Part shown: in pieces, positions 17,176 to 49,152 of the stretch
Numbering within the stretch: position 1 is the first letter of the stretch
How the letters are laid out: every line of letters starts with the position of its first letter
NCBI GenBank assembly: GCA_010093745.1
Contig: MU005979.1
Location: 124,001-188,000, forward strand
DNA from: Piedraia hortae CBS 480.64
Lineage: Eukaryota
Reading direction: 5' to 3'
DNA length: 64,000 nucleotides
Translations under genes and position numbers: made by a program
Notes under the pieces: generated by a model
Database searches by the model: none
Told to the model about the DNA's origin: nothing
What the model saw: only the letters and a program-made list of their open reading frames with translations

Positions 17176-19050
17176 ATGGAAACTGCCAAGACGAAAGCTC
17201 TGACCGCTTGGTTACAGCAGCACGGTGGGTTTTTGCACAAAGATATCAAGTTATGCCACGACGAACAATCGGGTATGCATCTGCGTGCATTTGCAACCAT
17301 TGAACCGGATACCGTAATCACAAAAGTCCCGCTCACCCTCTCCCTTTCCAGTCTTAATGCCTTGGTGGACAAGCAATTTTCCGTGTTCTGGTCTCGGCGA
17401 AGTGAGTTGGATCCCGCAGCCGTCGGGTACTTTTACCTCGCCCTCCAGTGGATAAACCGGGAAACTTCGTTTTGGCAACCGTATCTAGAAGCATTACCCC
17501 AACCGGGAGAGGACTTCTCAACCGCTCTCTGGTTTGATCGTCCAGAGGATGTTGATTGGTTATTTGGGACAGATGTACTTGTCTCGATGCAGTGTGCCAA
17601 AGAGTTGCAAGAGGGATACTATCACAAAGGAATTCAATTCTTGAAGGAAGCCGGTGTCGATGTTGAGCCCATAACGTGGTATGTGTTTCGAATCTGTAGA
17701 CGTTTCTACTTCTAACAAGGCAGGGATCTCTACCGTTGGGCCTTTACGATATTTTCGTCTCGTGCGTTTTCCTCCCGCTTCGCTAAGCGTGAAGACTCGC
17801 AGTGGGTGGCCTTCGATCATGGTAAAGACGGCAATGGCCAAGCATCGGCCCTCAGTCTGGATAAAAGCTGGGCTGAATTCCCTGTCCTATTCCCAGTACA
17901 AGATATCACGAACCACAAACCGAATGCTCGCGTACTCTGGGAAATGGACTCCAAAGATTTCTGTTTTACCGTGGAAGAGAAAATTGACGCCAACTCGGAA
18001 ATATTCAACAATTACGCCACAAAGGGCAACGATGAGCTGTTGATGGGCTACGGCTTCTGCATACCTGATAACCCAAATGACGGAGTCTCACTTGCACTAA
18101 AACCCCCTGCTGCAGATCTACAGACGAGTTTGCGAGAGGCGCGTCCCAATCTTTTCACGCCATCAGGAACGTGGAATCAGGCAAAGATGACCTTCCGCGT
18201 CAGGAAGACAAGACCAAATGATGCAAACACTTTTGTCTGCGTTCCCGAGCTTCTGCTGGAGATTCTACTCTATGTTGCTCGTTACGAGCGTGAACTCCCC
18301 TTTAAGCCCCAAGACGATCCCCTTCGATATATAATTGAAGACTCGGATGGACGTCGTTATAAGCCGCGTATTGCCAGGATGCTTGTGGTCTCGCTTTCAC
18401 AAACATTACAGCCATTGATTGCAGGCAAACGGTCGGAACGACCCTCGAATTCAAAGCAAAAACATGCACAAATCTACAGAAATGGCCAGATCAGTATAAG
18501 AAAAGATCTCATCTTGAACTTTAAGACGGTCATAAGATCACTCTTCAAAACGCCCAAAGCGCCCTGTCCAACGTTCTTGACGCTAGAGCGGCTATACGCA
18601 TTTTGGCAATTGCGTGCTCGCAGCCACGCGAGACAATTTCTTGACGGCATCAGCCTCAGCGCACATACGCTCGATCTAAATCTCCTCCGCCGGTCCGGGT
18701 GGGAAGATGACGCTTTCGTCCTGCTGCTAGCCTACATGTTTCTCGACGCCGGTCCGGAAAATGTCGAAGCAAAGTTGCCACCCTATATGCCGGCCTTGCT
18801 GAGCGCACCTGAAGTCCCCAAGGACCTTCAGGAGCAGACCAAGGCGCTCATGAAAGTCGTCCGCATCGCGCACCAGAACTCAATCAACACGGTTTGGAAC
18901 GACCCTCGCTGGTCGGAAACGCTCATCATGGCGTTTGGAAAGATGTTTATGTTTGAGAGCATGGAAATTGTTGTGCCGCTTGAAAACAAGGATGAGAAGC
19001 GTCTTATTGTCTACTTGCATGACTGGATCGAGAATGTGCGAGTGGTGTGA
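17176..19050 (+). CDS. SET-domain protein-lysine methyltransferase (Rubisco-LSMT/Efm1/Rkm type); intron 17679-17723
   Basis: WLQQHGG, SFWQPYLEALP, spliced WDLYRWAFTIFSSRAF, VLFPVQDITNH and EIFNNYATKGNDELLMGYGF. Confidence 0.88.
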
Positions 19051-20299
19051 AGCACCGCAGCATATACCTTTGCACCAGCGTCGTTTTCAGTATATTAAGC
19101 CATGAATTTTACTCTAATCAGGGGGCCTTGCCCAGTCTGCAGAATCAACGCTGTTTCTTGCCCTTAATGAATGTACTATAGTCTCTCAACTGCGCTGGCA
19201 TGTCCAGAAATACCTGGGACTACTGTAAACCGGTGCTGGACGTGAAGTGTTTGTTCAAAAAAGAAGACTCGATGGGGCGCTCCACATTCCCAAACAGCAT
19301 GCATGATTGACTCTAATTCAGTATCAGCCGATCACAACGCAAGGCGGCTCCTTGGGTGGTTGGTAATCACCCCGCCTGTTCGGGCTTGGGCGCTTGTCCA
19401 TGTGCGGCTGCGCCATCACATACCATCTCTCACTGTTTGTGTCCCTGTGACGTACTACCAACCTTATACTTCTAACACCATCCAGTCTCAATCAAAGCTC
19501 CCCACTACGCTATTGGCCGTCGTCAACTGATGTCGCAGGTGGATCGAGCCGTTGCAGACGGGGAGGAGCAAACATCTCCCTGAGCTCGTCGCAAACTCCT
19601 TCGTAGCTGTACGCAATACAATCAACAACCTTGGCCTAAAAACATTATACACTTCAGCATGAGCATTCCATCAAAACGGACGCCCCCGCCTGCTTCACAA
19701 GGTACCACGTTATGCCCAATCCGAGCGTTAAAATGGCGACTTTTGCTCAAGGACCCTGTCCCTTTGTCCCACGTGTGCTAGCACTACCGTTGCCAACCCC
19801 AAGGAGAGGAGCTGTGTTGATAATCACAACCACAAGGCTGACCAACTTTGTTGAGAGTCTTTACTATGTATTAGACAGATGGAGTTGATAAAGGATTATT
19901 GTAGTCACATTCTATCAAGCAGATAAAACGAATTCAACGAACAACTCCGTTCCACCAAGAATCCACCAACTACAATGTTGGCATAGCGTTCCTAAATATT
20001 GAAACGGTTCAGCTTGACGTCCAAATTCTGATTATACAATACCAAAGACGTTCAGAGCACCCATTATCTCCCCCAACCAACGTTTTCCAAACGCCCCACG
20101 ATTAGACCGTTGAGTCTGAGCCTGCCAACGAGCTACCAGATCCCATTCTTCCTCTTAGCCCTTTCCTTTTTACAAACATCACCGTACAACTTAAAATCCT
20201 GCACACAAATCCTCTGTACCTAGACGCCCGCCACAAATGCCTGATAAGCTTTCGTTTGCGCCTGGTCAGGTTGTGATCTACTAAGACGTGAAGTCTGGG

Positions 20300-20480
20300 T
20301 CAAAAGTTGTGTGTAACTGTGTACGTCTCTACGTGCTCTGAGCTAACGCAACGTCCTCCACATACCTACAGTTGGCGAGACCGCATTTGCCGAGACCACG
20401 CGATGACGTGATCTCGTCACAGGGGAAAACTCCTCTATGAGGCAGAAAACCCTGCGAAGCCTCGGGCGTTCTAACTACCA
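20300..20480 (+). repeat. Diverged dispersed direct repeat, copy 1
   Basis: CTCCACATACCT...CCGCATTTGCC...AGGGGAAAACTCCTCTATGAGGCAGAAAACCCTGCGAAG aligns collinearly with 25270-25465. Confidence 0.65.
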
Positions 20481-22515
20481 CCGATCTAACTCATCTAACA
20501 CAGGGCTCACCATGCTATCTACACGGCCAACGGAGTGAGCGGAGGGTCAAATGTGTAACGGAGAGTCTGGGACGGACGGGACGGGACGTGGGCGGGTCTG
20601 TTGTGAATATGCGGTATATTACGCGCATTATTAGTAACCGTCGCTCGGCTCTCGACTTCACGCGTCAACTAGTTTTCCGTAGAGATTTGTATGCAGGTAC
20701 ACATCTGCTCACAATTATAATAGGGTCTACGCGGTACGGGCCGCATCACGCACTACATAGCTATCAATTCCGTGACGGCCTCCAGATCGTTACGTTCTAG
20801 TCAGTATAGAGGCTGTCTGAACCTATTCTGCATCATCTGTGACAACATGGTTTTGGGGCGACATATTCTTTCGCGCTGCTTTTTGCTGACTATATGTGCA
20901 TCCATCGAACTGGCATCCATCCTTTGAATATCATGGTTGAATTTAGATCGAACTGCAAGTGCTTGGTTGGCTGATGAGTGCATAAAGCTGAGATTACTAT
21001 GCGACTCTTCGCAAACAAACCGCCAACAGGTTCTAACCCCTAGGGCCCATTTCGTGAAGTAATTCAGCCTTGAAAGTCTGTAAAGACACAACGATAGGAC
21101 AGATGTTTTACATAAGCTTCGCCCGTCTGCCAGTCCATCAGACTGTCATGGTCCCGGACAAGGCAGTTTCAGACTTTCACGGCAATTGCGACCTTGTGGT
21201 TCGTAGGGTTGAGTTCCGGGAACGGGGCATACAGCTTTTGTAATGAGCTCCTGGCTTATGTAGATAGCTTAGATAGCCGCAGTGAGATATGTTACATCTG
21301 TGCATTCGCATGTTTCGTTTTCTGTTGGGATTTTCTGACTTGTTACAAGGGACGAGGTACAAGATGGTGGGGTTCAGATGTATTAATCCCGACCCAAGCA
21401 GCCTCATCCCCAACTTCGCTCCTACAGAACACCACCCCAAAAGCGTCCGGGCATGCAATGCTTGCCAAGCACACATGCATGCAACCCAAACCGCATTATA
21501 TAGCGTCTTTGTTGAGCGGCCAGTTACATTACAGTATCAGCTTGATTTGCAGACGAAGAGAAGTCTTGCAGTACAGAATCATATATTTACCAAAGGAAGG
21601 CATTCCATCCTGGACACCGTCAGCATAGAGTTGGCTGTGTTGATACAGAAACGTTGCTGTGCCTCCAACAACTGATCTCTCAACATGGTACGTAAGAAAT
21701 CTCAGGAAGGTTCTGACAAGGGCCATATAAGAAAGAAAAAAGGACAAAAAAGTAGCCTCCCAAGCCACTGTTTATCCATCCCCCCTGCCGCCGTCTTTGT
21801 TCCACAGGTAAAGTGCCTGTGTATGGCTCCAAGATGAATTACGAGAAGCGCGGCTAACGCAGTAGGATCAGGCAGCGTGGCTTGAGCATTGGCAGGCTGG
21901 CCTTACGGCATTCAAACCCGGGTTCTCACCACAGGCACTTGAATGCGCAGTGGTCCACCTACCCCGCCCGCGCTACTGGCCCAATGTGCTTCCAGCACGT
22001 CAAAAGCACGGCGGTATCTCGGCAGCAGAAAGAACCGCGTTGACACCGATCCGACTACTTTACAGCAAAGGAGCCGTGTAGGAGAGTCGGTATGCTATGT
22101 AGAGCGAAACGCTAGACAGTTGCAACTAGCGGGTAAGATCTTATTGTGTTCTTTATAGACTGTTCGAACTGAGGCTCGGGCCGCGGAAACACAACACACC
22201 AATATGATGTCGGGAAGTGGGGGTTTATATACACACAAGAGTGTACTGTGGTCAGTCGCGCATTAGCCGGATCACATGATCTCACCTGAAGGGGTGGAGG
22301 GAACTACTGAGGGAGATGAGATTCACGCTCACGTAAAAACTATTGCTCACACAACGTGTTTCATGTCAAATATGACCACAAACACGACTAGCCCAATTAC
22401 AAATGGAAAAATAAATTACTACGAAACAACAACGAAAACGATTAAACCAGCCCAGTAAACTCTCGGTACCCATTCGTCTGCGTGAGGAATACAACCACCA
22501 CGCCATTGTCCCTAC

Positions 22516-22926
22516 TCAAGCATCCTTCCTATCTTCCTCATCAGCCCAATACCCCTTATCCTTCTCAACAACCTCCTCAGAAACAGGATCGTCAGGCTCG
22601 ATACTCTCCATAACCGTCTGGCCCACTTAATCGGGCGGTAGAGTCAGCTCCCGACGCTTCGAAGGGGGAGGGGAGACAGTGGCGGAATGGGGACGCTTCC
22701 CGCCCTGGAGGGACGTCTTTTCGGTAGTGTCTGTCTCGTCGGTGGCAGGATTCGTGGAAGCACCGTTCTTCTGAGGCTGCGGGGCCACGTCTCCCTCCTT
22801 GTGGGCGTGCTCAGCCTGCTGAGGGGGGATAGGTTCCTGGTTCGCGGCGGGGTTTTTGTCGGGGGCAGTAGTCCCAGGGGCGATGCCCTGCATGTTGCCC
22901 TCCGAGGAGTGGGCGGGGGGTTGCAT
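22516..22926 (-). pseudogene. Low-complexity orphan ORF interrupted by one in-frame TAA (22627-22629)
   Basis: 99-aa ORF ending ...KRRELTLPPD*, followed in frame by VGQTVMESIEPDDPVSEEVVEKDKGYWADEEDRKDA*. It shows the same C/A-to-G/T skew as neighbouring real genes. Confidence 0.35.
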
Positions 22927-25269
22927 CGTTACCGTAGGGGTAGCCGATGCGAGGAAGTGCTGTTATGAGGTTATGAGGTTATGTGGTTTTTGGGGAGAGT
23001 GTGTGGAAGTATGCCTGAGTGCAGTGTTTGTGCAGTGCGGGTTGGAAGCAGGCGTATGTGCTGAGGGTTCCTGTTAGGGAACGCGGGGATCTAGACCGAG
23101 CGAGCATGCTAGTGAAAAATTGTTCAGGGAGTGCGGATTTGGAGCGAGCGTGGTGCTGGGGCTAAGGATTACGGGCGTACGGGCGTACCTGTGCTGTAGA
23201 GAGTGGGTATAACTTAAGCTTGGCCGCAGAATTTCAGCCGCCCGCCCTCCGCGATGTATGATACTGTAGTGCGTGTATGTGCCTATGTGGCCTTTGCTGC
23301 TAGTTTTCAACACACCATGACGAGGAAAAATATCTCAGGTGGCTTAGCATAAACAATGACGAGCGAGAGGCTGTTACGGGCCGTCTGGTATGCGAACGAA
23401 TTTTTCGCACAATGTTCTCTGAGGGTGGGGTTCTAGACGTGTCTGCATGGGACAGATTGGAGTCTGTACTGGAACGGTATGGCTGGCTCAATTTCTGTCT
23501 CTCATGTCGTGGAAAAGTGTCTAGGATCTTGCATCCTCTCATGAGTTGGATAAAGTAGATGTGGCCCTCTATGGCTTTGCGGGCCGTGGTAAATAGGCAG
23601 GGATTACGGATTGAGATGAGCTTTTGCTTGCCCCTTTAGAAACCAACCGGTCTGAGGAGTCGTTCAGAGAGAGAAAGCATGTGGAATCGAAGAGAATGAG
23701 GAGGCATATGGCTGTTCAGGGTTCCTGGTGGCCAAGAGCGATGTTCAGAGCCTTCTGCTGAACGGAGAAGGTTCATTGCCGACGGCGAGGGTGGAAAAAA
23801 GCTTGGAGTGGCTGGGAAAACACAACATGTATGCTCAACGCATGAAAAAGAGAGTGTGACAATTCTTTTCCGATTCATCATGGAAGCCTACATGAACAGT
23901 CATACTTGTCTGCTTATTCCAAGCAATCCTATTCCAAAGGCCGAAGTGCCGATCTCGATTGGTGCACTTTGTTTATCATTGAACAGCCTGCCCAGCACAC
24001 GAGATGATTGGAGAAGAAGATTAATGCGTACGTCTTCATCATTCCAATTGGCACTCAGCTCTGGGCAGATCTTTTTGGTGTGATTGTGTGTACCTATGAC
24101 ACTGTAGAATGAACCGTGGCAGAAATGGTCGTGCCGGGCCGTGGTGGAAAAGGCCGAGGACCAGACAAAGTTTAGGCGAAGGCGAGGAAGCTAACACACA
24201 TCAATTTCGAGAAGCTTTACATATTCACCGACCCAACCAAACAATAGGCAATGTCTCGGCGTTCAAAAAACTGGCCCTTTAGGAAACCAGGTGGCAGTTT
24301 CATTCAGAGTAAAATGCCATGTATAAACTTAATAACCTCTGTGGGCATCAGCTGGGCAGCAGCTTGGCTGCGTCGAACTAAAGGTTCAAGTTTTGCACTT
24401 GTTTCGCGCAGGGGGTTCAGAGTAACTCATCATTCCCACCCAGGCTAAAGATTTAGACGTGACCTCCATCATGACTGGATGGATTGAGACTGCCGTGATA
24501 AGCTTCGCCGTCCCTTCATTCATGTCAGGATTTTTGTTGTGACGTGCTAAACGGGCATCATTTTGCTCCCAAAGTCTTGATGTCTTTAAACGACCCTCGC
24601 AAAATCGGAACAAACTTTCGTTCGTGTCTGGACAAACTGGACTTTTTCATCAAAGCTTTCTGGTCCATAATGGCAGCCACATGAAAAGATTGGTAGCCTC
24701 ATTGAACCTAGTGTCAAACAACATACTCTCCTACATTATTTGTGTCCATGCCGCTAGCCCGGAACACTCATCCTTTAAACACCATCCAATATCAACTGAA
24801 GCCTTTCATTGTGTTTCAACAGGACAGCCCGATGAAAATGACACCCTAGCCGCTTCATCCTGTCAAATGTCCTAGACATCGTCTCAGTCGACCCGATAAG
24901 ATACATCATCATGGAGTACCTCAGCATTGAAGACGCATCAAGTGTCTGTGCCGCATATTCAGCTGTTAGACCATCTCATGATGTTGTGAAAAACACCAAT
25001 CCATTCCGGGTCATGTTTGCCAGCAGGGCAGTACAACTTCAATATTTGGGAAAAGGCATCAATTTCCAATCGGTCAAAGTTAGTTGGATCTGGGCATCCC
25101 ATCTCACTCCATCCACCTCATCCGACCCAATGAAAGAGAATCAACTTCGCAATTTTCAGTAACAAGATTATTAGCACAGATAGCACTACAATATGTGTCA
25201 GAGGGGTGAACCTCCGAGGACTAAAGGGGAGCGGATATCGACGACAAATGTTTCCACTCAACTTTGACT

Positions 25270-25465
25270 GAAAAAGTGAATGTAGATGTCTATGTCTATA
25301 TGAGATGAGGTTTGAAATCTTCTCCACACTACCTCAATCTAACCGCATTCGCCAGGACAACGTCAGCGAACCATGACCTTAAGCATGAACGAGACAATGA
25401 CCCGTCCCAGGGAAAACTTCCTCTATAGAGGTAAAAACCCTGAGAAGTTTCGACTTCTATCTAAA
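25270..25465 (+). repeat. Diverged dispersed direct repeat, copy 2
   Basis: CTCCACACTACCT...CCGCATTCGCC...AGGGAAAACTTCCTCTATAGAGGTAAAAACCCTGAGAAG. Confidence 0.65.
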
Positions 25466-25934
25466 GTTCTGGTCATGGTAGGTGCCACATCCTTCTGACA
25501 ATATGCTTCTTTGACATCTCCAAAGATTGTGACGACGGAGCGGTAACACTGTTCTCTAGAGCTGCCTACGGAATAAGTCTGAAAGGCGAGACGTCATATA
25601 TTGCCATGCGGATCCGGTCCTTCTCTCTCCTACGAAAATCTGTTCAAAATCTGCGCGTGGAGATTGCGACTTTTGTGCAGGGACCTTGCCCTTTTATTCC
25701 ACGCGTGTTAAGATAGGAGCGGCGACGTCCTAAAAATGGGACGGCGTTAATCTTCATATCGGATAACCCCTTCCCCCACCACCCCCTGGCCGGTGAAGCA
25801 TGATTTGTTATGTATAGAGGGACGAGTGTTGGCATGAAGTCTCGTTGCTATCAGTGTACGATGCCACTGCGCGACACCTCTTACACCAGCAGCTGCACCC
25901 TAGGTTTTGTCCTCACAGAGGTTTCCCTCAGGGT

Positions 25935-26049
25935 CATGTCGCATGCGACATGGTGAATGCGCCCTGCTACTGTTATGAGGTCAGTCATGGAGTAAGACTG
26001 CATGCTGACAGTCTTACTGCATGTATGACCACTTGCTTATGGTCATACA
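25935..26049. repeat. Palindrome/hairpin cluster
   Basis: Perfect 18-bp palindrome at 25935-25952; 10-bp perfect stem AGTAAGACTG/CAGTCTTACT inside a longer imperfect stem (25979-26030); 10-bp stem TGTATGACCA/TGGTCATACA (26022-26049). Confidence 0.8.
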
Positions 26050-26689
26050 ATTGATGACTCTTCATACGAGGCTACGCACGGGCCTTCCAGCCCAGAATAT
26101 ATTCTCTGATGTTCCCTCGAAGATATACTTGTATTCACTCATAAAACACATCTCTACTTTCCATCCATCGTTCTCACTCATACATACTATCTGTCTTTTT
26201 CAACGAGCAGAAGGCAGCAGAATTAGATATCGACGGACTGGTCTTCAGAAAGTTTCTGCTAACGAATGTATCAACCACAATGTAAATACCTATGGTAACG
26301 TTGTAAGTCTACGGTTCCTTATCAAAGAGGTTTTAGAGTGACTCATTGCTCTCATTCCACCTAAAGCTCTACAGACGACCCTTGACAGTACCAGCGTTTT
26401 ACAGTCAGTTGATACCGTATCTTCACGTTCTAATAAATGAAAAGTAACGGGTACAAAAATTGCTTACCAAGCCAACAAATCGCCTCAAGAATGGTTGCGT
26501 AACTGTTAATAAGGTCAGTCATCCAAGAACGAATCGAAGAAAAGAAACCTTCAAAAGTGAAACGTTCAAGAACGATTCAACAACGGTCCACTTGTGATTT
26601 GAACACGGCTCAAAACAGACCAAAAATATTCATTTTGGGTTACGTGATACCATGCTGACTCCGCTCGCTCCTCACTACACCGCTCGAAC

Positions 26690-27986
26690 TAGACTCGTTG
26701 TTGGGCATAAGATGATGATATCGCATTGGGTAAAACATATAGAAAGCTGGAGAACATATCCGCAATGGGTGGTGGCGGTCCCGCTGTTGAATATTGTCGA
26801 ATGACGTGCCAAACGGATCAGGCCGGTGCAGGCTGGGAGGTGACCAACCTTGCAGTTAGACACCAGCAGAGTCACACTACCACAGACATCACCCCCATAT
26901 TATCAATTATAACCCGCATCGTTGAAACTTTGACCATTTTCACGCCTGTACATTGCTCTGCCATTTGTATTCCTCCCCGTTGGTCATCTTGTTCACGGCC
27001 GCTTCCGTCTTGGCTTTTATCCTCATCGAGTGGTTTCCTAGACTTGTCGGACAAATGGCAGCATTGCAATGCTTGGGTCATTACATCATCTCACATTTGC
27101 TCTTCCACGTGGCCTCATCGCCGTGACTCTCTCAGTGTGCAACTGTCCAAACGAGAAGCTCGAACTCGACTGCGTACGCACTCTAGCCTGAGATTTCAAC
27201 TCTTGGGACGTGTCAAATGCCACGGAGGCATTTGAGACGTTGAGTACGACCATCGAAATGACGGAATCAGACCATTGCATCCTGCGCCACTGCGTTCCAG
27301 CGTATGAAGCTGTTCACCGCAGCTTTGCGAAGGCGTCGGAGCACCCGATATACAAACTGAACCCGTCGAGTAGTGCTTTCACGCACAAATCAGCGAATAC
27401 TATATACATAACAGCTTTCCTTCTCGACCCCAAGAATGTCCCAAGCATAAGGGCCTGGCGTTTAAGATGACTTTCCTGACCAAAGTATCCTGGCGCGCAA
27501 AGCTGCAGCTGATTCTTAATCAGCTGTTTTTTCGACCGTGCGGCGGCGATGAGGAGTTCAAACGACCGGTTGACCTTTGCCTCCACATTGGAGCTGGCTG
27601 CTATGCGCTGGCGGAGGTCGCCCAACGCCTCGCCATCACGCCAGCAAGCTCTGTGCCCTCCGAGCCGGCATTCTCCATACTCAGCCTAATACATAACAGC
27701 CTGAAAAACCTCCTGTTGACGCCAAAGTTTGACAAACTCTAGGCAATTTACATCAACGAGTGAGCTCTGTCGCCGAGCAGGAAGTGCCAAGTACCGCGAG
27801 CGGAGACGAGGGGAGCTCCTTGACCCGGAAGATTTGCTGCGACTAGAAGGGTTTTTGGAAGAGCTTACGCCTATCGTGGAGTCAAACCCTGAGAGCTCTG
27901 TGGAAGTCCTAAAAGCATCAAGGCACGGGAAATTGGGCGTCTCCGACGAAAGATGGAGCTGCTCCAAATCGATCTGGACGCCATGA
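26690..27986 (+). mobile_element. Degenerate hAT-superfamily transposase (pseudogene)
   Basis: Chain of frameshifted ORFs: BED-like finger (EYCRMTC...TNLAVRHQQSH), IYITAFLLDPKN, and the hAT dimerisation domain ALAEVAQRLAITPASSVPSEPAFSILSLIHNSLKNLL...DKL*AIYINE*AL. Confidence 0.8.
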
Positions 27987-29348
27987 TCCTTCCCGGTCCG
28001 AACGACGTCTGGTCGATGGATGCATACGGCAAGCTCGAGAAATGGGGCTTGCACATGTGTTGGAAGATAGACGTTGCGTAGCGTATTCGTTGTGAAGATT
28101 GAGGTTTTACGAAAATTATCTTTTCTACTGTTCAGCAGCGAGATTATATACAAGTAGCTTCTTTGTTCAAACAATCTCAAATATTACTCCATTGCCCCAC
28201 TGACGATGTTTAGCGACGGAAGTCAGACGAGGCTCGCGAGAAGCCAACGGCACTTCTCCCTGAGAATATTTTCCAAGAGTGAGTAGTTTCATCGAACTCT
28301 ACGCCCGCGCTTTATACTAACGATCATGCAAAAAGACATGCTCCAAGAAGACCTTAAGACATATTCTTGGACAGAGATCGGAGATCTTTGTCCCGCAGTA
28401 GGCACCCAAAAAGGAAAGGCCAATGAATCCGCCAACCGTCCCTTCGTCATGCGGGATACTGAGCTTCCCGGTCAACTTTTTAATTCTGGGCGAATGCCTT
28501 TCTCTCAGAGATCATCGAGAAAGCCGGGAAATGCAAAGGTGAATATGCCTTTCGCCCTTGGTGCGTGGTCCTGGCGAAGGATGGGCAGCCAAAGTCTTGC
28601 CATGTCACGGAGAGGAAAGTACAGACACGGTAATCGTACGATCGCCAATAGGAGCCAAGAGTTGCCTTGAAGCCAAGGGAGGCTGAGCCTTGTTACGATG
28701 ACCCCCTCCACCGTCGTCACGTGGAATCATATATTCCCTAATGACACCCGGTGGAATCAGACTATGAATAAATACAACCTTACCAACCTGTATTCAGCAA
28801 ACGTCAACGATGGTGCATTCTTTGTGATAAGCTAGTAAACGTATCGGCGAGTGGGAATTGGTGAGGGATCATGTATTTCGTACGGTTGAACTGGCAATTA
28901 TGAGACTAATTGTTGGAAGGGGGGAAGGGGTGTTGTAGAGTTTCTGGTTACTTGTATGTGACGTCTGGTAAAAGTTTCGTGAAGCAAGAATTTTGGTCTC
29001 TGCACATTAAAGCAGCTTCACGAGAGGCAGAGCGCGTTGCCAGGAATGAACATTTTGGGAGTTCAACGTCGTGGGGTTTTTCAAAATAGGTACCTATACC
29101 ACCGTTTGGCCGACCGTTTCTAAAACATGTAGGGAAGCGAAGCGCTTTTGACGAGACTTCATCTTGCATCCTCTCTGACTTGTACGTACAGCATGGTATC
29201 TCACCTCTCCATCCAGGCAAAGCTTCCGGTTATGCTTCCACGACGAATCCTCGAACACCGCATGCGTCCTGACTTGAACCTCATAAATCTACTTGCTATA
29301 TCGTTCCTCTAGAAAGTAGAATTACCTTTAACATATGCACGTCGTAAA

Positions 29349-31601
29349 TCAACCACGCGGTGAAGACTCTAAACCACGAGCATTGAGAGCGAGCCCGGAA
29401 CGCAAACATCTCACTTTTCTTGGGGGAGGTTTCCCAGCAGTGGAGCTGCGTGTAACGGGACTGTCCTCCAATACCCGCTTAGAACGGGTTGAAGTAAGAC
29501 TTGGTGTGTTGACCAGTGTCGAGCCGTCACGAGACGGCGTATGAGGAGCCGGACTGCGACATTCATTTTCATCCGAGGGTGGCTGAACAGCGGCTTGCAA
29601 AGTAGCCCAGTTTTCGGGAAGGATATAATGGTGTGCAATATGCAGCATTGGGTCAAAGAACTCTCGCTTAAGCTGCTCGTATGCTGGTCCTTCCCTTACA
29701 GCCATCCACTTCCTTTGTCCAGATATTCGCAGGATGAATTGGTTGGTTTTGGCGTGTTGGTATATCGCTGTGGCAACACGATTGCTGATTTCTGATTTCT
29801 GTCAATGATTGTCACGCGCTCGGGGGATGCTTACTTACGCAATTTTTCTACAAGTACTCGAATAGCGGGAAATCCGCGGGTGAATGCAATATACATCATG
29901 CGCCGACTGAGTGTCAGATTTTTCATCATTTCCAAAGTGGACTGTTCATCCTCTCCCAGCAGGCATTGGTAGCAGACGTGGGCAACTGGTAGGCGTGGAT
30001 CGCTGTCTCGCATGTAGCCATAACAGGGAAGATGCTGCCACATTCCACAGCTGGCGCATTCTACCATGTCCATGTCTTGGTCGATCAATCCACACTGGCA
30101 ATGAACAACCTCTCCCTGGAACGATGACTGGCCAGCTTGTCCCGTGAGTTTGCTTTCGTCCAACTTCAGTTCCGCAGCTTTGGCCGGTGTAATAACCGGT
30201 TTGGTGCTGGGCTCGGCGGCCGGTAGTCTGTTGGCAGGAGCCTGACTCATAAGCGAGCCCCAAGCAGCCGTCTGTGTTTGTGTATCGCCTTGCGTGACTT
30301 GCTCTGTCTGCATCATGTTCTTAAATGTGTCCCGTATGTCTCTGAGTTGTGCTGGCGTTTCACCAGCCTGAAGACTTGGCATTGTGTCTGTCTTGGTTAT
30401 AGTCTGCGCTTGTGGCATCGAATCTTCAATCTGAAGGCCAGAAACTCCAAAATCTTCGTAAGCCTTTTCTGGCGTGGTCATCTCCACGTCTACGGCCGTG
30501 GTCGGCGTGCCAGGCATATCAGGCTCGAGCTCAGGCTCAGGTTCAAGCTCAGTCTCATTCACTTCGGACTCCACTGCCCACAGCAAATCAGTATAGCTAT
30601 CGACGGGGCGGGATGACAAACCTGGTTGTGGTGTAGATGTATCGACATCTAGAGAGGTCAAGACGGTCAGGTTTGATCTGCAATGTAAGCATTGAACGAA
30701 AACAATGATCTGACCAACCTGTGGAATGCAGAGTCTACATCTTTGAGCATTTCGGTGCGCTTTATCTCACCGTCAAACGTGAATGCGTCTTCGCCTGTGA
30801 CAGGTTTAAACCCTTCCGGTACCGTCGATTCATCTGTCGGCTCGTTGTATACCAGGCCCATGGATATGTACCGATCGGCTGGATTGGTCAACAAATCAAA
30901 ACATGTGGAGTTAAGCTTTGGTACTTACCTGGAAGTTCCGGAAGCACCTCGCAAATGTGCATGGTCTGCCGAAGCATGGTCTGTAATGCGGAATTGGAGG
31001 CCTCCGCGCTGATTATTGGGATATCCGATCCACTCATTCGGATGCCGGATGGAGATCTGCCACGATTGGCATCGTTGATGTAGTTGATGCTGAACTCATA
31101 GCTCTCGATCACTGTCTGGTTGTCTGATTGATCCGGGTGCACTCCAATTTGCAGTGACTGGAGTCGCCCCTCTTTGATAGCAACAAACGCGACTTTCTCC
31201 TGTCGGAAATGAGTAAAGGCAATGGCAACCTAAGGAAAGACTCACCAACCAGTCAAGTAACTTGTCAACACGCCTGCTGCGTCCGCGGCGAAGGACTTTC
31301 ATAACAGTGCATGGTACTTGAGTCGATCCCGATTTTCGAGGCAATTTTCCAGAGGCATAATCTCTGTATGGATAAATGCGGTCACTCATCATGTACACTT
31401 GCTGATCGAAGAAACTTTCTGGGAAGAAGCTCCTACACTGGTCAGCTTCACAGTCCTATGGAGCTACTGTTTGTACCTCAAGTAGGCCACGCTGCTGAGC
31501 TTGATGCAACGTTAGCGTATGCACACGTTACTGATTACTTTGGGCCTTACACAGCCGTGAAGCATTGTCCGAACGATATCTAGGCTCTGCTGCTCGTCCA
31601 T
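29349..31601 (-). CDS. HOP1: Meiotic axis HORMA-domain protein Hop1 with PHD finger, multi-exon
   Basis: Spliced HORMA: MDEQQSLDIVRTMLHGC | LSSVAYLR (23-nt exon 31477-31499) | SFFPESFF...VDKLLDWL | ...IESYEFSINY | RYISMGLVY..PEGF. PHD: CQCG...CASCGMWQHLPCYGY...CYQC. An extra upstream exon is possible. Confidence 0.88.
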
Positions 31602-32378
31602 GATTTGGGACCCGAGCCAAACGAGTGTTGATGCGGGTCTTGCTGAGCGAGTGAATGTGACGTGTGACGATGGATTCTTGGCAGGTAAAATGGAAGTGGC
31701 GGTGACAACAGCCCCGCCATGTGATTCCACTCTTGAGCCATGTCGTATGTCACTGGGGTAGAGGTTAGGTCGCGAAGCTGGTTTTTTTTTTTTTTTTTCC
31801 CAACAGCATAGAGAGAAAAACACAAATGGAGGAGTTGAGGCTCAAACTGGCAGTGCCAAGTCTTACGCAGTTTTGAAATGGCCAATCTGTGCCCTGAACA
31901 TGTACAAGCAGTCAATATGGGCTTGTATCTTTTGGTCAATCTGATGAGGATAAATTCGGTTGCAAGTGCGATAAGACATATCTATAGCAAAGTGGTTGTC
32001 GTCTACCAGCATTTACTTGGTCTATATAGCTTGGGTAGATCATAGCTGCGTGTGATAACGTGGGAGTGGTCGCACGAATTCGTTAAGAACTCGGCAAAAG
32101 CCTGGACGCTTAATGCTGGATGTTCGTGTTTGCCGGACTACAGAAATTGTTTCAGGCCGTGAAATTAAGAGAAGTTGTCCAGCTAAACGATTTGGTACCG
32201 TGGCTATGAACGACTGTAGTCAACCCGTCATGCAATGCCATGCCACGGACCGAGCCGTTTACAACGTGACCGTTACCACTGAGGGGTGTTTTAAGCTTGC
32301 CGATGGAGCTGCCGATCACGATGATGGTGTTCACCCAATTTGTTTTCCTTTGAAGAAGAGGAAATCAAGCGCTAGAAG

Positions 32379-40572: not shown

Positions 40573-40771
40573 TGTTTTCAACCAAACCATTTTCCTCTCC
40601 AATGAACATGGCCATGCACATGATCATTGTTCCAACTGGATTCATTGTTTTGATCAAGATTAAAGTTTCAACCCCAACAATCCATTATTCAACCAATCCA
40701 TTCAATCATACCATCCACCTCCAGAGATAAAATGTCCGAATCTTTCCTTCCAACGACCAGAAAAATTCAAC

Positions 40772-41716
40772 ATGACCAATTCTAACATCAAAATCCAAAA
40801 GCAAATCCAATCCCAGTACGAGGACAAATCCAGTGAGTACGACATCATCAAAACCTTCCAAACCATGACTGACAGGTCAGTCCACCTGGCCCTCCACACA
40901 CCCACATTAACAATGGTCGTTGTCAAAAACATATACCGTTTCAAAACAACCACCACCCCAATTGAAGTAAGACTCCTCACCCGTGAACTAAAAAACAGAC
41001 CCAACATAACGTTATGCCTCGACTCCTGGCGAGCGGGCACCATGTCCTGGGCTATCGCGATTTCATACTACCGTGACGGGGATCTACACGCGTACCTCAC
41101 CTCCCGCATCGCAAATAGCGGGACGCAGCCTCCAGAGCCCTTGTCCAAAAAACTCGCCATCGATATGGCCACTGCCCTTGGATTCATGCACCTCGGGATC
41201 GCGGACATCTCCCAAAAACCCGTCCTCGTGAAGGGTCACATCCCGATCCTACATAGGGATTTGAAACCGGAAAACGTCTTCGTGCGGATCGAGGACAGTG
41301 TTCCAAAGTTCGTGCTCGCCGATTTTGGACTCGCGAACTTCCTGCCCGAGGCGGTCGGAGTGACGGGCACGCCCGGGTATATAGCACCGGAGTGCCAGAA
41401 GGTTTCGGATGAGTTGGATGAGGAGGTTGCGGAGAGGGTTAGAGTTCATACGGCGAAGTCGGATGTGTACTCATTTGGTGCGATTCTTTGGTCCGCGGTG
41501 ACGGGGTTGCCGTTTGATAATCTCGAGACGAGGTATAGTTTGAAAAGGATGGGAAAGCATCTGAAGAAGATTGGGGTGGAGGCTACGGGGGGGACGGTTG
41601 GGGCGTTGGTTTTGGGATGTTTGGAGAAGGAACCTGCGGAGAGGTTGGGGACGGAACAGTTGGTGGGGTTTGCGAGGAGGTTCAAGGGTGAGCTTGGGCC
41701 GGGGGTGGTGTATTGA
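40772..41716 (+). CDS. Divergent Ser/Thr protein kinase, intronless
   Basis: VVVK, ILHRDLKPENVF, LADFGLA, GTPGYIAPE and KSDVYSFG present; no GxGxxG loop. Confidence 0.88.
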   Translation: MTNSNIKIQKQIQSQYEDKSSEYDIIKTFQTMTDRSVHLALHTPTLTMVVVKNIYRFKTTTTPIEVRLLTRELKNRPNITLCLDSWRAGTMSWAIAISYYRDGDLHAYLTSRIANSGTQPPEPLSKKLAIDMATALGFMHLGIADISQKPVLVKGHIPILHRDLKPENVFVRIEDSVPKFVLADFGLANFLPEAVGVTGTPGYIAPECQKVSDELDEEVAERVRVHTAKSDVYSFGAILWSAVTGLPFDNLETRYSLKRMGKHLKKIGVEATGGTVGALVLGCLEKEPAERLGTEQLVGFARRFKGELGPGVVY

Positions 41717-42733: not shown

Positions 42734-43717
42734 ATGGAGGCCTTTGTTCCGCGGCTCGCATTTCCAGTATTAGAGTCATTGCCACGGTCCTACTACCTCG
42801 GCCATCATGCGGCGGGCCTGGCAAAGATGCGATCTCTCTTAGGCAGTATCAACCTGGTCATAGAATGTCGAGATTCTCGTGTGCCGTTAACGAGCCACAA
42901 CCCTCTATTTGAGCAGAGCCTTGGAGAACGCGAGCATATCATAGTCTACACCAAAAAGGATCTTTGCCCAGTCATCTCACCACAACTCCCCCTCCTACGT
43001 CGCTTCCATTTTCCCTCTGAACTCCTATGTTGTGACCACCGCAGCCCAGGCGACGTTCGCCGGGTCATGTCCCACATCAAGAGGGAGCGAACTGGGGATT
43101 TGGCGGGACTGAGGGTCATGGTCGTCGGCATGCCAAATGTGGGAAAGTCATCTTTGCTCAACGCTTTGAGAGCCCAAGGAATGGGGCGGGGCAAGGCTGC
43201 ACGGACTGGTGCGCAGCCGGGCATCACGAGGAAGATTGGGACGGGCGTCAAGATCCTGGACAGTAAAGACCGAAGTGAGACGGTCTACCTAATAGATACG
43301 CCCGGTGTCTTTATGCCCTATGTCCCCAACATGGAAGCCATGCTCAGATTAGCCCTTTGTGGATGCGTCAAGGATGCCGTCATTCAGCCTTTAACTCTGG
43401 CCGACTATCTACTTTTTCACATGAACAAGCATGATCCAAAGCTTTATGGGGATTATGCATCGCCGACAAATGACGTTGCGATGCTGTTGGATGGCGTGGC
43501 GAGGAGAGCGTTTCCACTTAAGAAAGGCGGCGAGCCGGACCTGAATGGAGCCGCCATGTGGATAATTCAGCGTTGGAGAAACGGTCTCCTCGGCTCATTC
43601 GGTCTCGATGAAGTCAGCGACGCTTCATGGCAGGCGTTGGTTGAATCGAGAGAAGCACAGAGCTTTTCCAAGTCGCGCAGGGAATGGATGAAGCGACGCA
43701 GACAGGGAGAGACGTAA
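42734..43717 (+). CDS. MTG1: Mitochondrial ribosome-assembly GTPase (YlqF/RbgA family)
   Basis: SYYLGHHAAGL, IECRDSRVPLTSHNP, TKKD (G4), GMPNVGKS (G1), PGITR (G2) and DTPG (G3), in circularly permuted order. Confidence 0.93.
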   Translation: MEAFVPRLAFPVLESLPRSYYLGHHAAGLAKMRSLLGSINLVIECRDSRVPLTSHNPLFEQSLGEREHIIVYTKKDLCPVISPQLPLLRRFHFPSELLCCDHRSPGDVRRVMSHIKRERTGDLAGLRVMVVGMPNVGKSSLLNALRAQGMGRGKAARTGAQPGITRKIGTGVKILDSKDRSETVYLIDTPGVFMPYVPNMEAMLRLALCGCVKDAVIQPLTLADYLLFHMNKHDPKLYGDYASPTNDVAMLLDGVARRAFPLKKGGEPDLNGAAMWIIQRWRNGLLGSFGLDEVSDASWQALVESREAQSFSKSRREWMKRRRQGET

Positions 43718-44782
43718 TTTTCATCTGCCATGTGATGATGAACGGCCTCGATTGATCAGAGTTTGCCTTTACCATGGTGGCAATAACAGAGATACCGACC
43801 TGAAACTGACAGCGATTGATCTTACCGCTCTCACGAAGGCTGTATCGTTCTCGACCTGGCTGGGTTGTTGTTTGAAACACACAGTGATCTACATGGCGTC
43901 CGGCCCGAAGACTCACAACTTACTAAACCTCCCATGAGCGCAAAGATCTCGCGGATCCGGAACCCGGCTGATCGGAGCCCTGGGACGATCAATCATCAGC
44001 AGGGGATCTTTGCCCCATGACATATTGGATAAACTGTTGCGCTTTCCAGGTAACTCTTCAGCCGAACTACTTGGGGCCAAGATTCGTTTTATCATGTTTG
44101 AGTGGGATGAACCCATGACAGCACTTTGCACACTCAGCGTACTCGGCAAATTCGTACACGCTACTAAGCAGAGCTCCTCAAGATAATTCTCATGAACAAC
44201 AGACGATGTTCATGAGGCCTGGATCAAGAGCGAGTACACCGCCTAGTGAAGCAGTTGTAGCTTCGTCCATGTGAGACGTCGCGGGGTCGATCCGAAGTTC
44301 ATCCGGCTGATCCCATCCACACGTCACTCCATGACCCCAGAGCCATCGTTCTACAAATTACACCCACTCATTTCCTTCTGACACAGGCTCATTGATTACA
44401 ATGGCAAAATATTCACATGGCGTACCGCTCCCTTGGGTTGAACTCGCGGATCTCACGGGTCGAAGGACAAGATGCTTGGCAATGATTCATTAAACATCAC
44501 TTGTCTGTTGCAAGCCTTGTCGATCGTCGACCCCGTGGATGATGTGTCCAGAACATCAATTGTCTTGACAGACCAGGATGGCCTCAACGAAAATTGTTTC
44601 GTCAGGTAAGGACACGGTTTCATCGTTGAACCTCTCCAGTATATAACAACACCGCTTTCTCGTCTTATTTTCCATCATCTTCCTTGCATTCACAGTCCTT
44701 CAGTCCTCTATTCGGTCTTTCTTTCTGTATCACCACCTTCATTTTTTAAGTCTTTATTCTTCCGAAGAACCAAGCCAGCAAA

Positions 44783-45723
44783 ATGACCAAGCTCATCTTC
44801 CTCACTGCTCTCCTTACATCGGCCGCGCTGGCGCGTCCTTGTGGTGGCAACAAGCCGTAAGTCCAAACGGTTCCCTTGGAACGAACTTTCCAAACTGACA
44901 TTTAAGAACCGGTGTCTCCATCCCCAGCATCCCTACCAAGAGTGTCGCCCCTTGCCCTTATGCGTCCGGCGTCCCAAAGATCAACTGTGGCGGATGCGGT
45001 GGTGCTGGCTGCCCCGGCTGCGGCGGATCTCCGGCCCCCATGGGTTCAGCCCCTGCGAAGTGTGGCGGATGTGGTGGTGCCGGCTGCCCCGGCTGCGGTG
45101 GTTCTGTCCCTACTGCCACCGCTGCCATCAAGTGCGGTTCCTGCGGCGGTGCTGGCTGTGGTAGCTGTGGCGGCTCTGCTCCCACTGGTACTGCTGCTAA
45201 GTGCGGTGGCTGCGGTGGTGCAGGTTGCCCTGGATGCGGCGGATCGGTCCCGACCGCTACTGGTATTGCGAAGCGCTGTGGAGGCTGCGGTGGCTCAGGC
45301 TGCCCTGGATGCGGTGGTGCCGTCCCAACTGCTACTGCTGCCAAGTGTGGTGGCTGCGGCGGTGCCGGCTGCCCCGGCTGTGGTGGTTCTGTCCCAACTG
45401 CCACCGCTGCCATGAAGTGCGGCTCTTGCGGTGGCGCTGGCTGCCCCGGATGTGGTGGTTTTGTCCCGACTGGCACGGCCGCTGTGAAGTGTGGAAGCTG
45501 TGGCGGTGCCGGCTGTGGTAGCTGTGGTGGCTCTGGATGCGGAGGCTCCGTCCCGACCGCTACCGCCGCTGCCAAGTGCGGTGGCTGTGGCGGTTCTGGT
45601 TGCCCGGGATGTGGAGGTGCTGCCCCAACTGCGACTGCTGCTGGCAAGTGTGGAGGCTGCGGTGGTGCTGGTTGCCCTGGCTGTGGTGGATCTATTCCGA
45701 CCGCCACTGCTCGCAGGTTCTAA
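44783..45723 (+). CDS. Secreted Cys/Gly-rich tandem-repeat protein, 296 aa; join(44783..44856,44907..45723)
   Basis: Signal peptide MTKLIFLTALLTSAALA-RP; 50-nt intron GTAAGT...CTGAC...AAG keeps the frame; ten modules of KCGGCGGAGCPGCGGSVPTATAA that vary mainly at synonymous sites; TATATAA at 44640. Confidence 0.9.
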
Positions 45724-48500: not shown

Positions 48501-49152
48501 TCACCCGTTCCGAACGGGGTCCCAGTACCGACCGGGTGCATCTGCATCATGTCAGCCATGCCCGATTGAGAATGAGCCATACGCACACGATGAGTCTGAC
48601 GCTGACGTCGTCGCCGGCTTCTGCTCGGTCTCGGTCTCGGTCTCGGTCTCGGGCGATTTCTCGTTGCCGCTGACGTCTCCGCCCTTGCCCTTGGCCTGTC
48701 CGCGCCGGTGGCGGTTGCGGTTGTCGCGGTAGCGGAAGACGTGCCAGAGCAGCCACCGAATGACCCAGTTCTCGTCCTCTGACGCGTCGGCATCGCGGCC
48801 CAGGTCGTAGACGGCGCGCGTGTCGGCTTGGGCCAGTTGGTATATGCGTAGGATCTCCTGATAGATGGCCGACTCGCTGACGTGTGCGTGGCTGTACGGC
48901 GGCTCGATGCGCGAGTCTCGTAGCTTGACGAGAAGAGAGCTTTGGTCCTCGGTTAAGCGTTTCCGACCCTCGACGGCTTCTTCCTAAAAGCAGCTCGTCA
49001 GCCATCTAGCAGGACAGCGAGACAGCTTGGGAGTGCACCTTCATCTTGGCATACAGCCGTCTGTGACACTCATCGTTTTCCTGCAGGCCCAGCCGTTCAA
49101 ACAGCCGAGCCTTGGACTCGCTCTGGGCCAAAGGTGCTCGAGGCGGGGCCAT
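48501..49152 (-). CDS. Fungal hypothetical protein; join(49039..49152,48587..48983,48501..48541)
   Basis: Canonical introns give MAPPRAPLAQSESKARLFERLGL...RRLYAKMK|EEAVEGRKRL...ENWVIRWLLWHVFRYRDNRNR...|YAPGRYWDPVRNG*. The main exon frame is missing from the ORF track. A (GAGACC)n repeat encodes ETETETET. Confidence 0.8.

Follow-up and report, generated by a model that had tools for sequence, protein, structure and literature searches.

A spliced Piedraia hortae gene for a putative secreted protein of ten four-cysteine modules, a candidate cross-linked matrix protein

Piedraia hortae CBS 480.64 carries a real and spliced, apparently unannotated gene for a presumably secreted protein in which ten small four-Cys modules follow each other in tandem. 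The gene lies on the plus strand of a 64,000-nucleotide stretch of contig MU005979.1 (GCA_010093745.1, positions 124,001 to 188,000), here called the window, in whose numbering all window positions are given (Table 1). The spliced product (44783-44856 joined to 44907-45723) has 296 aa, among them 43 Cys and 89 Gly, as a preliminary description of this DNA had stated for length and Cys content. We infer secretion, oxidation state, cross-linking and localisation of the product, and we put the chance at about even that it is a structural matrix or adhesive protein that is cross-linked through its cysteines.

Gene structure, selection and the module array

The clean intron that had been proposed for this gene is omitted exactly (44857-44906, GT..AG, 255 letters on the shorter side) in one contig of run X1. 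Since contigs of this run also omit two introns of a neighbouring gene, X1 behaves as RNA; the RNA label is a guess, and the splice evidence, one contig from one run of one study, speaks for splicing and not for level or stage. Without splicing, the reading frame ends at codon 26. One X1 contig spans window positions 42892-45648, from inside the Mtg1-like gene over a 1-kb intergenic stretch into the spliced target, and represents read-through, overlapping transcripts or an assembly join.

Table 1. Features of the gene and its product (window positions, plus strand)
Feature	Position	Strand	Remark
TATA-like box, then C/T-rich leader	44640..44645	+	comparable box and leader before three paralogs
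Exon 1	44783..44856	+	ATG at 44783, signal peptide, first mature residues and extra Cys C20
Signal peptide in exon 1	~ residues 1-17	+	putative cleavage site
Intron	44857..44906	+	phase-2, 50 nt, GT..AG, CTGAC branch-like site
Exon 2	44907..45723	+	through stop codon
Ser/Pro/Thr-rich N-terminal stretch	44907..44985	+	second extra Cys (C41)
Array of ten 12-residue four-Cys modules	44986..45684	+	Pro/Thr/Ala linkers of 11-17 residues
Module starts	44986, 45061, 45133, 45202, 45277, 45346, 45418, 45490, 45577, 45649	+	
Sole internal Lys-Arg pair	45271..45276	+	residues 147-148, possible single Kex2 site
Extra half-module after module 8	45526..45546	+	one more Cys
Short basic C-terminal tail	45685..45723	+	not hydrophobic

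The ten modules are under purifying selection, as the preliminary description had proposed for the peptide. Codon positions 1, 2 and 3 differ between cores at 0.113, 0.051 and 0.546, and 305 synonymous stand against 69 non-synonymous differences (630 codon pairs). Calculated from uncorrected proportions over pairs that are not independent, pN/pS is 0.115 in the gene frame, 2.41 and 1.66 in the two other plus frames and 0.216 in the antisense frame whose third positions are the same. The linkers have a pN/pS of 0.26 and are thus likewise under purifying selection, and the signal peptide has 0.144 across four paralogs. A tandem-core pattern finds six matches in the window and none in 100 shuffles. 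A Pro/Gln-rich antisense ORF (44958-45719, minus strand) was considered as the true gene and is ruled out by pN/pS, the plus-strand GT..AG splice and the signal peptide; the two other plus frames fail on pN/pS, splice and signal peptide.

All ten cores fit C..CGG.GC..CGG, and the module takes the form C-x2-C-G-G-x-G-C-x2-C. Ten units of about 23 aa had been described; their number stands, while their length is 23-25 aa with one unit of 29 aa that contains the extra half-module. Likewise, the Lys that had been placed before each core is found before eight of ten, with Arg before one and Asn before another. The four Cys are invariant across 22 aligned modules, and twenty CxxC motifs occur in 279 residues. 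Gly, Ala, Pro, Thr and Ser together make up ~69% of the composition and Cys 14.5%, with zero Asp, Glu and His. The mature chain has a predicted mass of ~23.6 kDa, a pI of 8.7 and net positive charge, and contains no N-glycosylation site. The signal peptide, also part of the preliminary description, is called from the best 11-residue hydropathy window (2.17, from residue 4) and from its conservation in four paralogs. The proposed check for a GPI anchor gave no sign of a GPI signal by tail hydropathy, which reaches at most 0.63 (best 11-residue window) within the last 30 residues. AlphaFold2 models from a 26-row module alignment and from the single sequence are of low confidence (pLDDT 41.5 and 42.9), the second with short hairpins at most cores, and Foldseek with the low-confidence predicted structure returned 0 matches.

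A four-gene family and its surroundings

A search of the own genome with the signal peptide gave four matches and none in the control, the target plus three more genes. All four have this signal peptide in common and are interrupted by a phase-2 intron at nt 71-74, the intron ends of the fourth gene being the best guess among several. One paralog (G000:C4:410323-411955, plus strand) has a product of 527 aa in which the module matches 23 times, once with Tyr replacing Cys, and which contains 12 KR sites arranged in six pairs. Its close sister (G000:C3:3239-5298, plus strand) has similar KR sites and 23 modules in its readable parts, with a run of N inside. The fourth paralog (L020, G000:C4 ~265860-266766, minus strand) has ~282 aa with 34% Gly and 26% Ser, two modules ~100 residues apart and zero KR or RR; it reads as a silk-like Gly/Ser chain, and its last eleven codons resemble a decayed third module. 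A half-module pattern matches the genome 75 times, 61 times inside the four genes; the 14 single matches elsewhere, compared with 18 in the control, are taken as background. Because linkers range from 4 to ~100 residues and some are cleavable, the 12-residue core would seem to be an independent unit. The target, with one internal KR, is probably not cut.

The neighbours of the target are housekeeping genes (Rpa43, an Mtg1-like GTPase, a kinase and a DJC28-domain protein) and show no sign of a cluster. Tailoring families of ustiloxin-type RiPP clusters (UstYa/DUF3328) were absent from the 30 long ORFs and one short ORF of the window that were scanned. Genome-wide searches for PF11807 and for hydrophobins were both blank, each with an equally silent control. 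The genome contains one Kex2-like P-domain gene and one SLAC1/SSU1-type gene. In the window, a cysteine dioxygenase gene (PF05995, 58657-59556, plus strand) lies 13 kb from the target. An intronless and divergent protein kinase frame (40664-41716, plus strand, Pkinase E 5e-20) lies under a low-depth contig, and the single start variant tried for it is absent from the protein collection described below. A small spliced gene with two CT..AC joints (48552-49038, minus strand) has no Pfam match in the scanned exon. The region 18000-32000 includes ~13 kb with one frame of at least 230 codons (29834-30766, no Pfam match), the rest of the window being gene-dense.

Database searches and the core in other organisms

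The preliminary description recognised no family for this protein, and the same holds for the databases searched. The target has no Pfam or NCBIfam family and no keratin Pfam match, its weak Pfam matches all being zinc-ribbon-like and below the cut-off; the PDB gave nothing below E 0.007 by sequence, and a PDB profile search yielded no PheS. A collection of 5.8 billion proteins was searched with the exon-2 product as query, scoring the 8000 best word-sharing candidates per length class. This gave no homologue at 150-480 aa, none at 481-2000 aa, where the evidence is weak, and at 30-149 aa a single non-significant look-alike of 116 aa (E 0.92). The cluster P0032 (22 members) has 116 aa, a signal-like N-terminus and three C-x-C-G-G-x-G-C-P-x-C units, one residue shorter than the module. 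With phmmer, 1.84 billion representatives gave 27 matches at E<=0.001 (best E 4e-15), and the exact core occurs in 0 of 27. As homologues these were rejected, since Cys/Gly periodicity or unrelated repeats account for them. The best ones lie in integrin-beta-like proteins of protists and consist of ADAMTS cysteine-rich-type repeats (PF19236). Controls keeping Cys and Gly alone in place reach or exceed their scores (for P0003, 113 bits for the control vs 68), whereas the true paralog has 223 bits vs 75 for its control. Judged by sequence, the best phmmer matches are pattern look-alikes.

Two neighbouring proteins are present in the collection by exact sequence (two of seven start variants tried), whereas the searches at 150-480 and 481-2000 aa and with phmmer brought up no match at the level of the target or its paralogs. 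Hence, it seems that the genes have not been annotated, although low-complexity filters might conceal them as well. No prior description of the target protein was found in the literature searched, and the supplementary tables of the KEP study could list a paralog.

The core pattern also occurs in other organisms. In prokaryotic genomes the exact-core DNA pattern has at least 120 loci, and flanking motifs identify 102 of the 120 matches listed as PheS. Among PheRS chains of solved structure, 2RHQ and 4P71 have the core as a self-contained 11-residue insert, which is absent from E. coli 3PCO. We take this Cys4 insert of bacterial PheS to be a zinc site. Viral contigs contained one single-module match.

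Two cores in tandem were found at 96 metagenome loci, which rough motif sorting divides into one bacterial family (24), plain Cys/Gly runs (16), small proteins or ABC-ATPase inserts (22) and others (34). The bacterial family (L181, L204, L205, L236, L246 and 19 more) is high-GC and has signal-like N-termini; its terminal domains are conserved, and 2-7 modules lie in a variable middle part rich in Gly and His. By one motif it is presumably planctomycete-like, and three of its members, as well as a related lipoprotein-like protein, have no Pfam or NCBIfam match. In four loci (L214, L224, L258, L260), all of them oligopeptide ABC ATPases, a Cys insert of two modules follows the Walker A motif. 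Seven proteins (L230, L248, L271, L197, L234, L255, L261) are eukaryotic, mostly of ciliate code, Gly/Tyr/Trp-rich and equipped with 5-18 tandem four-Cys modules. L230 and L248 have 18 modules each with linkers of 6-16 residues, L248 with a signal-like N-terminus, and L271 is a single frame of 17 modules under the ciliate code (table 6); several of the seven end in a Gly-Trp or Gly-Tyr tail, and the six that were scanned belong to no Pfam family. Proteins of the L230/L248/L271 type may represent a so far undescribed class of structural proteins that ciliates secrete. Tintinnid shell proteins were considered for their identity and ruled out, as these are nearly without Cys in the available part of that source (PMC13408134).

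A Pfam scan of 16 tandem-module proteins left 14 without match. L230 scores 143 against the target, and controls with fixed Cys and Gly have a mean of 123 and a maximum of 149. Because look-alike scores do not exceed these controls, separate expansion and common descent are equally likely. The tandem look-alikes are similar to the target at Cys and Gly positions alone and have no known function, and they therefore lend analogy and not annotation. A metagenome search for related loci gave 597 pattern stretches, of which 0 were confirmed.

Possible functions and comparison with known systems

As a cross-linked matrix protein, the target would be exported through the oxidising secretory pathway, where each 12-residue module could fold up as a small knuckle stapled by its Cys. 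These beads would be kept apart by the Pro/Thr/Ala linkers, which are probably O-mannosylated, and the spare Cys (C20, C41 and that of the extra half-module) together with reshuffled module Cys might link chains with one another and with the products of the paralogs. In this scheme the target would contribute a long bead chain that stays uncut, two paralogs short multi-Cys cross-linkers released by Kex2, and the fourth a soft Gly/Ser spacer that can be cross-linked at two points; together the four products could form an insoluble, reductant-sensitive fibrous glue. Colonies of P. hortae have a microfibrillar extracellular matrix that is poorly KOH-soluble and of composition not established (PMC11551259), and the products of the gene family are candidates for the cement in the black-piedra hair nodule. 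A matrix function is best supported by the fourth paralog, whose product looks like an elastomer that can be cross-linked at two places, a build that fits neither metal storage nor peptide release. By analogy, the bead-and-linker build of L248 and L271, with a signal peptide on L248, and of the 24-locus bacterial family also favours this reading. Further points in its favour are the composition rich in Gly, Ala, Pro, Thr, Ser and Cys, the basic chain free of acidic residues and of a hydrophobic C-terminus, the signal peptide and intron position common to the four genes, the selection on the linkers, and the disulfide-bonded ADAMTS-type pattern of the best database matches. Thus, among the functions raised in the preliminary description the matrix or adhesive option gains most, through the Gly/Ser-rich two-module paralog and the look-alike secreted Gly-rich architectures. 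Against it speak the PheS parallel and the resemblance of two of the four paralogs to classic peptide precursors. Moreover, since each module has an even number of Cys, all of these could pair within their own module, and three spare Cys would then be left for cross-links.

A metal-bound state is structurally plausible because the exact core equals the PheS Cys4 insert, a presumed zinc site. The chain could hence be a secreted metal sponge in which each module is a Cys4 knuckle for one Zn(II) or for Cu(I) clusters, about ten ions per chain, and which scavenges or detoxifies metal at the surface or hardens a matrix through metal bridging. This metal-chelating option was raised before with DnaJ fingers as model; the PheS insert, self-contained and behind 102 of 120 matches among those listed, is the better one. 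The invariance of the four Cys in the 22 aligned modules and the zinc-ribbon-like character of the sub-threshold Pfam matches point the same way. Nevertheless, we place it below the matrix function and consider it doubtful. Cys usually pair in the oxidising ER, which the signal peptide implies, so that the thiols would need to stay reduced; His, Asp and Glu are missing from the target, and the fourth paralog dilutes two modules in ~250 residues of Gly/Ser. Long modular fungal metallothioneins do exist, though in the available part of their description the unit of the Tremella and Cryptococcus proteins is a 7-Cys CxC block unlike the module (PMC4755600).

Cleavage at the basic residue before each core, by Kex2 at the one KR and elsewhere by a monobasic protease such as a yapsin, would instead release four-Cys antimicrobial or signal peptides. 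Cationic hairpins with two disulfides are common among antimicrobial peptides, Lys or Arg precedes nine of ten cores, and the C4 paralog (12 KR sites, six pairs), the C3 paralog and the Kex2-like gene of the genome would suit such a pathway. However, KR is found in one of nine inter-module linkers of the target, there is no acidic spacer and no XA/XP Ste13 run, and the linkers, rich in Thr, are conserved. A dibasic site is moreover absent from the fourth paralog, and the neighbours are housekeeping genes and not a RiPP cluster. The earlier proposal of a precursor cut at Lys is thus weak for the target, with its one internal KR and conserved linkers, and fits two paralogs; for the target we regard it as distinctly improbable. 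More improbable still is an extracellular thiol reagent with partly reduced CxxC pairs, either a sacrificial antioxidant or an agent that opens keratin disulfides and grafts the fungus covalently. The twenty CxxC motifs, the cysteine dioxygenase and SLAC1/SSU1-type genes and the cationic chain, which would adsorb to anionic hair, are in line with it. However, cysteine dioxygenase and SLAC1 genes are common in fungi and not distinctive, the module also occurs in organisms unrelated to hair, and the reduced state of the thiols is an assumption. Eight consecutive residues that occur twice in the target are the same as a segment of the exocuticle repeat epitope of sheep KAP5.1 in the portion of that study at hand (PMC3107965), which would also suit this reading. 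The octamer is held by 2 of 20000 composition shuffles, a figure that overstates the match because the shuffle ignores repeat structure.

Returning to the cross-linked matrix protein, its boldest version is unlikely. Here a four-part disulfide-cured glue, converged on the KAP5 chemistry of the hair cuticle and bonded covalently to KAP5 by thiol-disulfide exchange, would be the black piedra cement, and at the same time the 12-residue knuckle would be an extracellular building block without a name, expanded separately in fungi, in ciliates and in bacteria. Fungal matrices are viewed as polysaccharide, melanin, hydrophobin and GPI-anchored adhesins. If true, a cysteine-cross-linked secreted family of silk- or keratin-associated-like type would be a new class of fungal matrix material. 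The matrix reading predicts solubility in reductants and offers a lead for hair- or wool-binding materials. Since no Pfam or NCBIfam model covers it and it occurs in at least three lineages, the four-Cys micro-module is a small and cheap target for structure and metal-versus-disulfide work. The four genes would be the first concrete, testable candidates for the black-piedra cement, whose composition ultrastructure has not established (PMC11551259). What this analysis adds is the family member with an uncut bead chain, the one rich in Gly and Ser, a definition of the module, the PheS parallel and the tandem use in other lineages.

Several known systems share single features with the target. Like the KEPs, as far as an excerpt of their description goes (PMC6339444), it has a signal peptide and internal repeats, and its C4 and C3 paralogs have KR between repeats. 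In the target itself, KR sits in one of nine inter-module linkers, so that it falls outside the KEP definition of that excerpt, which calls for KR, RR or KK between repeats; its repeats are moreover Cys/Gly knuckles and the fourth paralog is site-free. The PheS Cys4 insert has the spacing C-x2-C-x-G-x-G-C-x2-C that all ten target modules match. It is, however, single, cytosolic and placed inside an enzyme, whereas the target repeats it ten times in tandem within a putatively secreted chain of low complexity, and homology is not implied. The DnaJ repeat CxxCxGxG, which the preliminary description brought up, fits the first half of ten of ten modules and the second half of one, the other nine being without the last Gly; the target pairs are four residues apart, and there is neither a J domain nor a PF00684 match. 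Its statement that the protein lacks the hydrophobin pattern is confirmed, as the eight-Cys pattern of hydrophobins contains two CC doublets and the target has 43 Cys, 0 CC doublets and no Pfam match. GPI-anchored cell-wall proteins have a hydrophobic C-terminal signal, whereas the target tail is basic. ADAMTS cysteine-rich-type repeats have a similar Cys/Gly pattern and are disulfide-bonded; like the presumably secreted target they are extracellular, with a period near 23 and a CGxCGG motif (PF19236). The matches of this type have 5-6 residues between the inner Cys compared with 4 in the target, are Asp-rich and contain 0 exact cores, and the target has no PF19236 profile match, Cys/Gly-fixed shuffles scoring as high. 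Tremella TmMT and Cryptococcus CnMT1/2 are also proteins of ~260-300 aa with tandem Cys blocks and spacers, yet their block, in the part of the source at hand, has seven Cys in CxC pairs (PMC4755600), while the target has four in CxxC pairs, the Cys content given above and a signal peptide. With KRTAP5, in the excerpts available (PMC3107965, PMC10029157), it has Cys/Gly-rich repeats and the eight-residue stretch in common; a matrix role through disulfide cross-links serves as working analogy. The KRTAP5 signature CCCKPVCC from the latter excerpt (PMC10029157) is absent from the target, which lacks CC doublets, is fungal and has a signal peptide. By the sequence features tested, the target is not a member of the KEPs, hydrophobins, DnaJ fingers, known fungal metallothioneins or KRTAP5; by analogy, its mode of action may resemble that of keratin-associated proteins that form cross-links.
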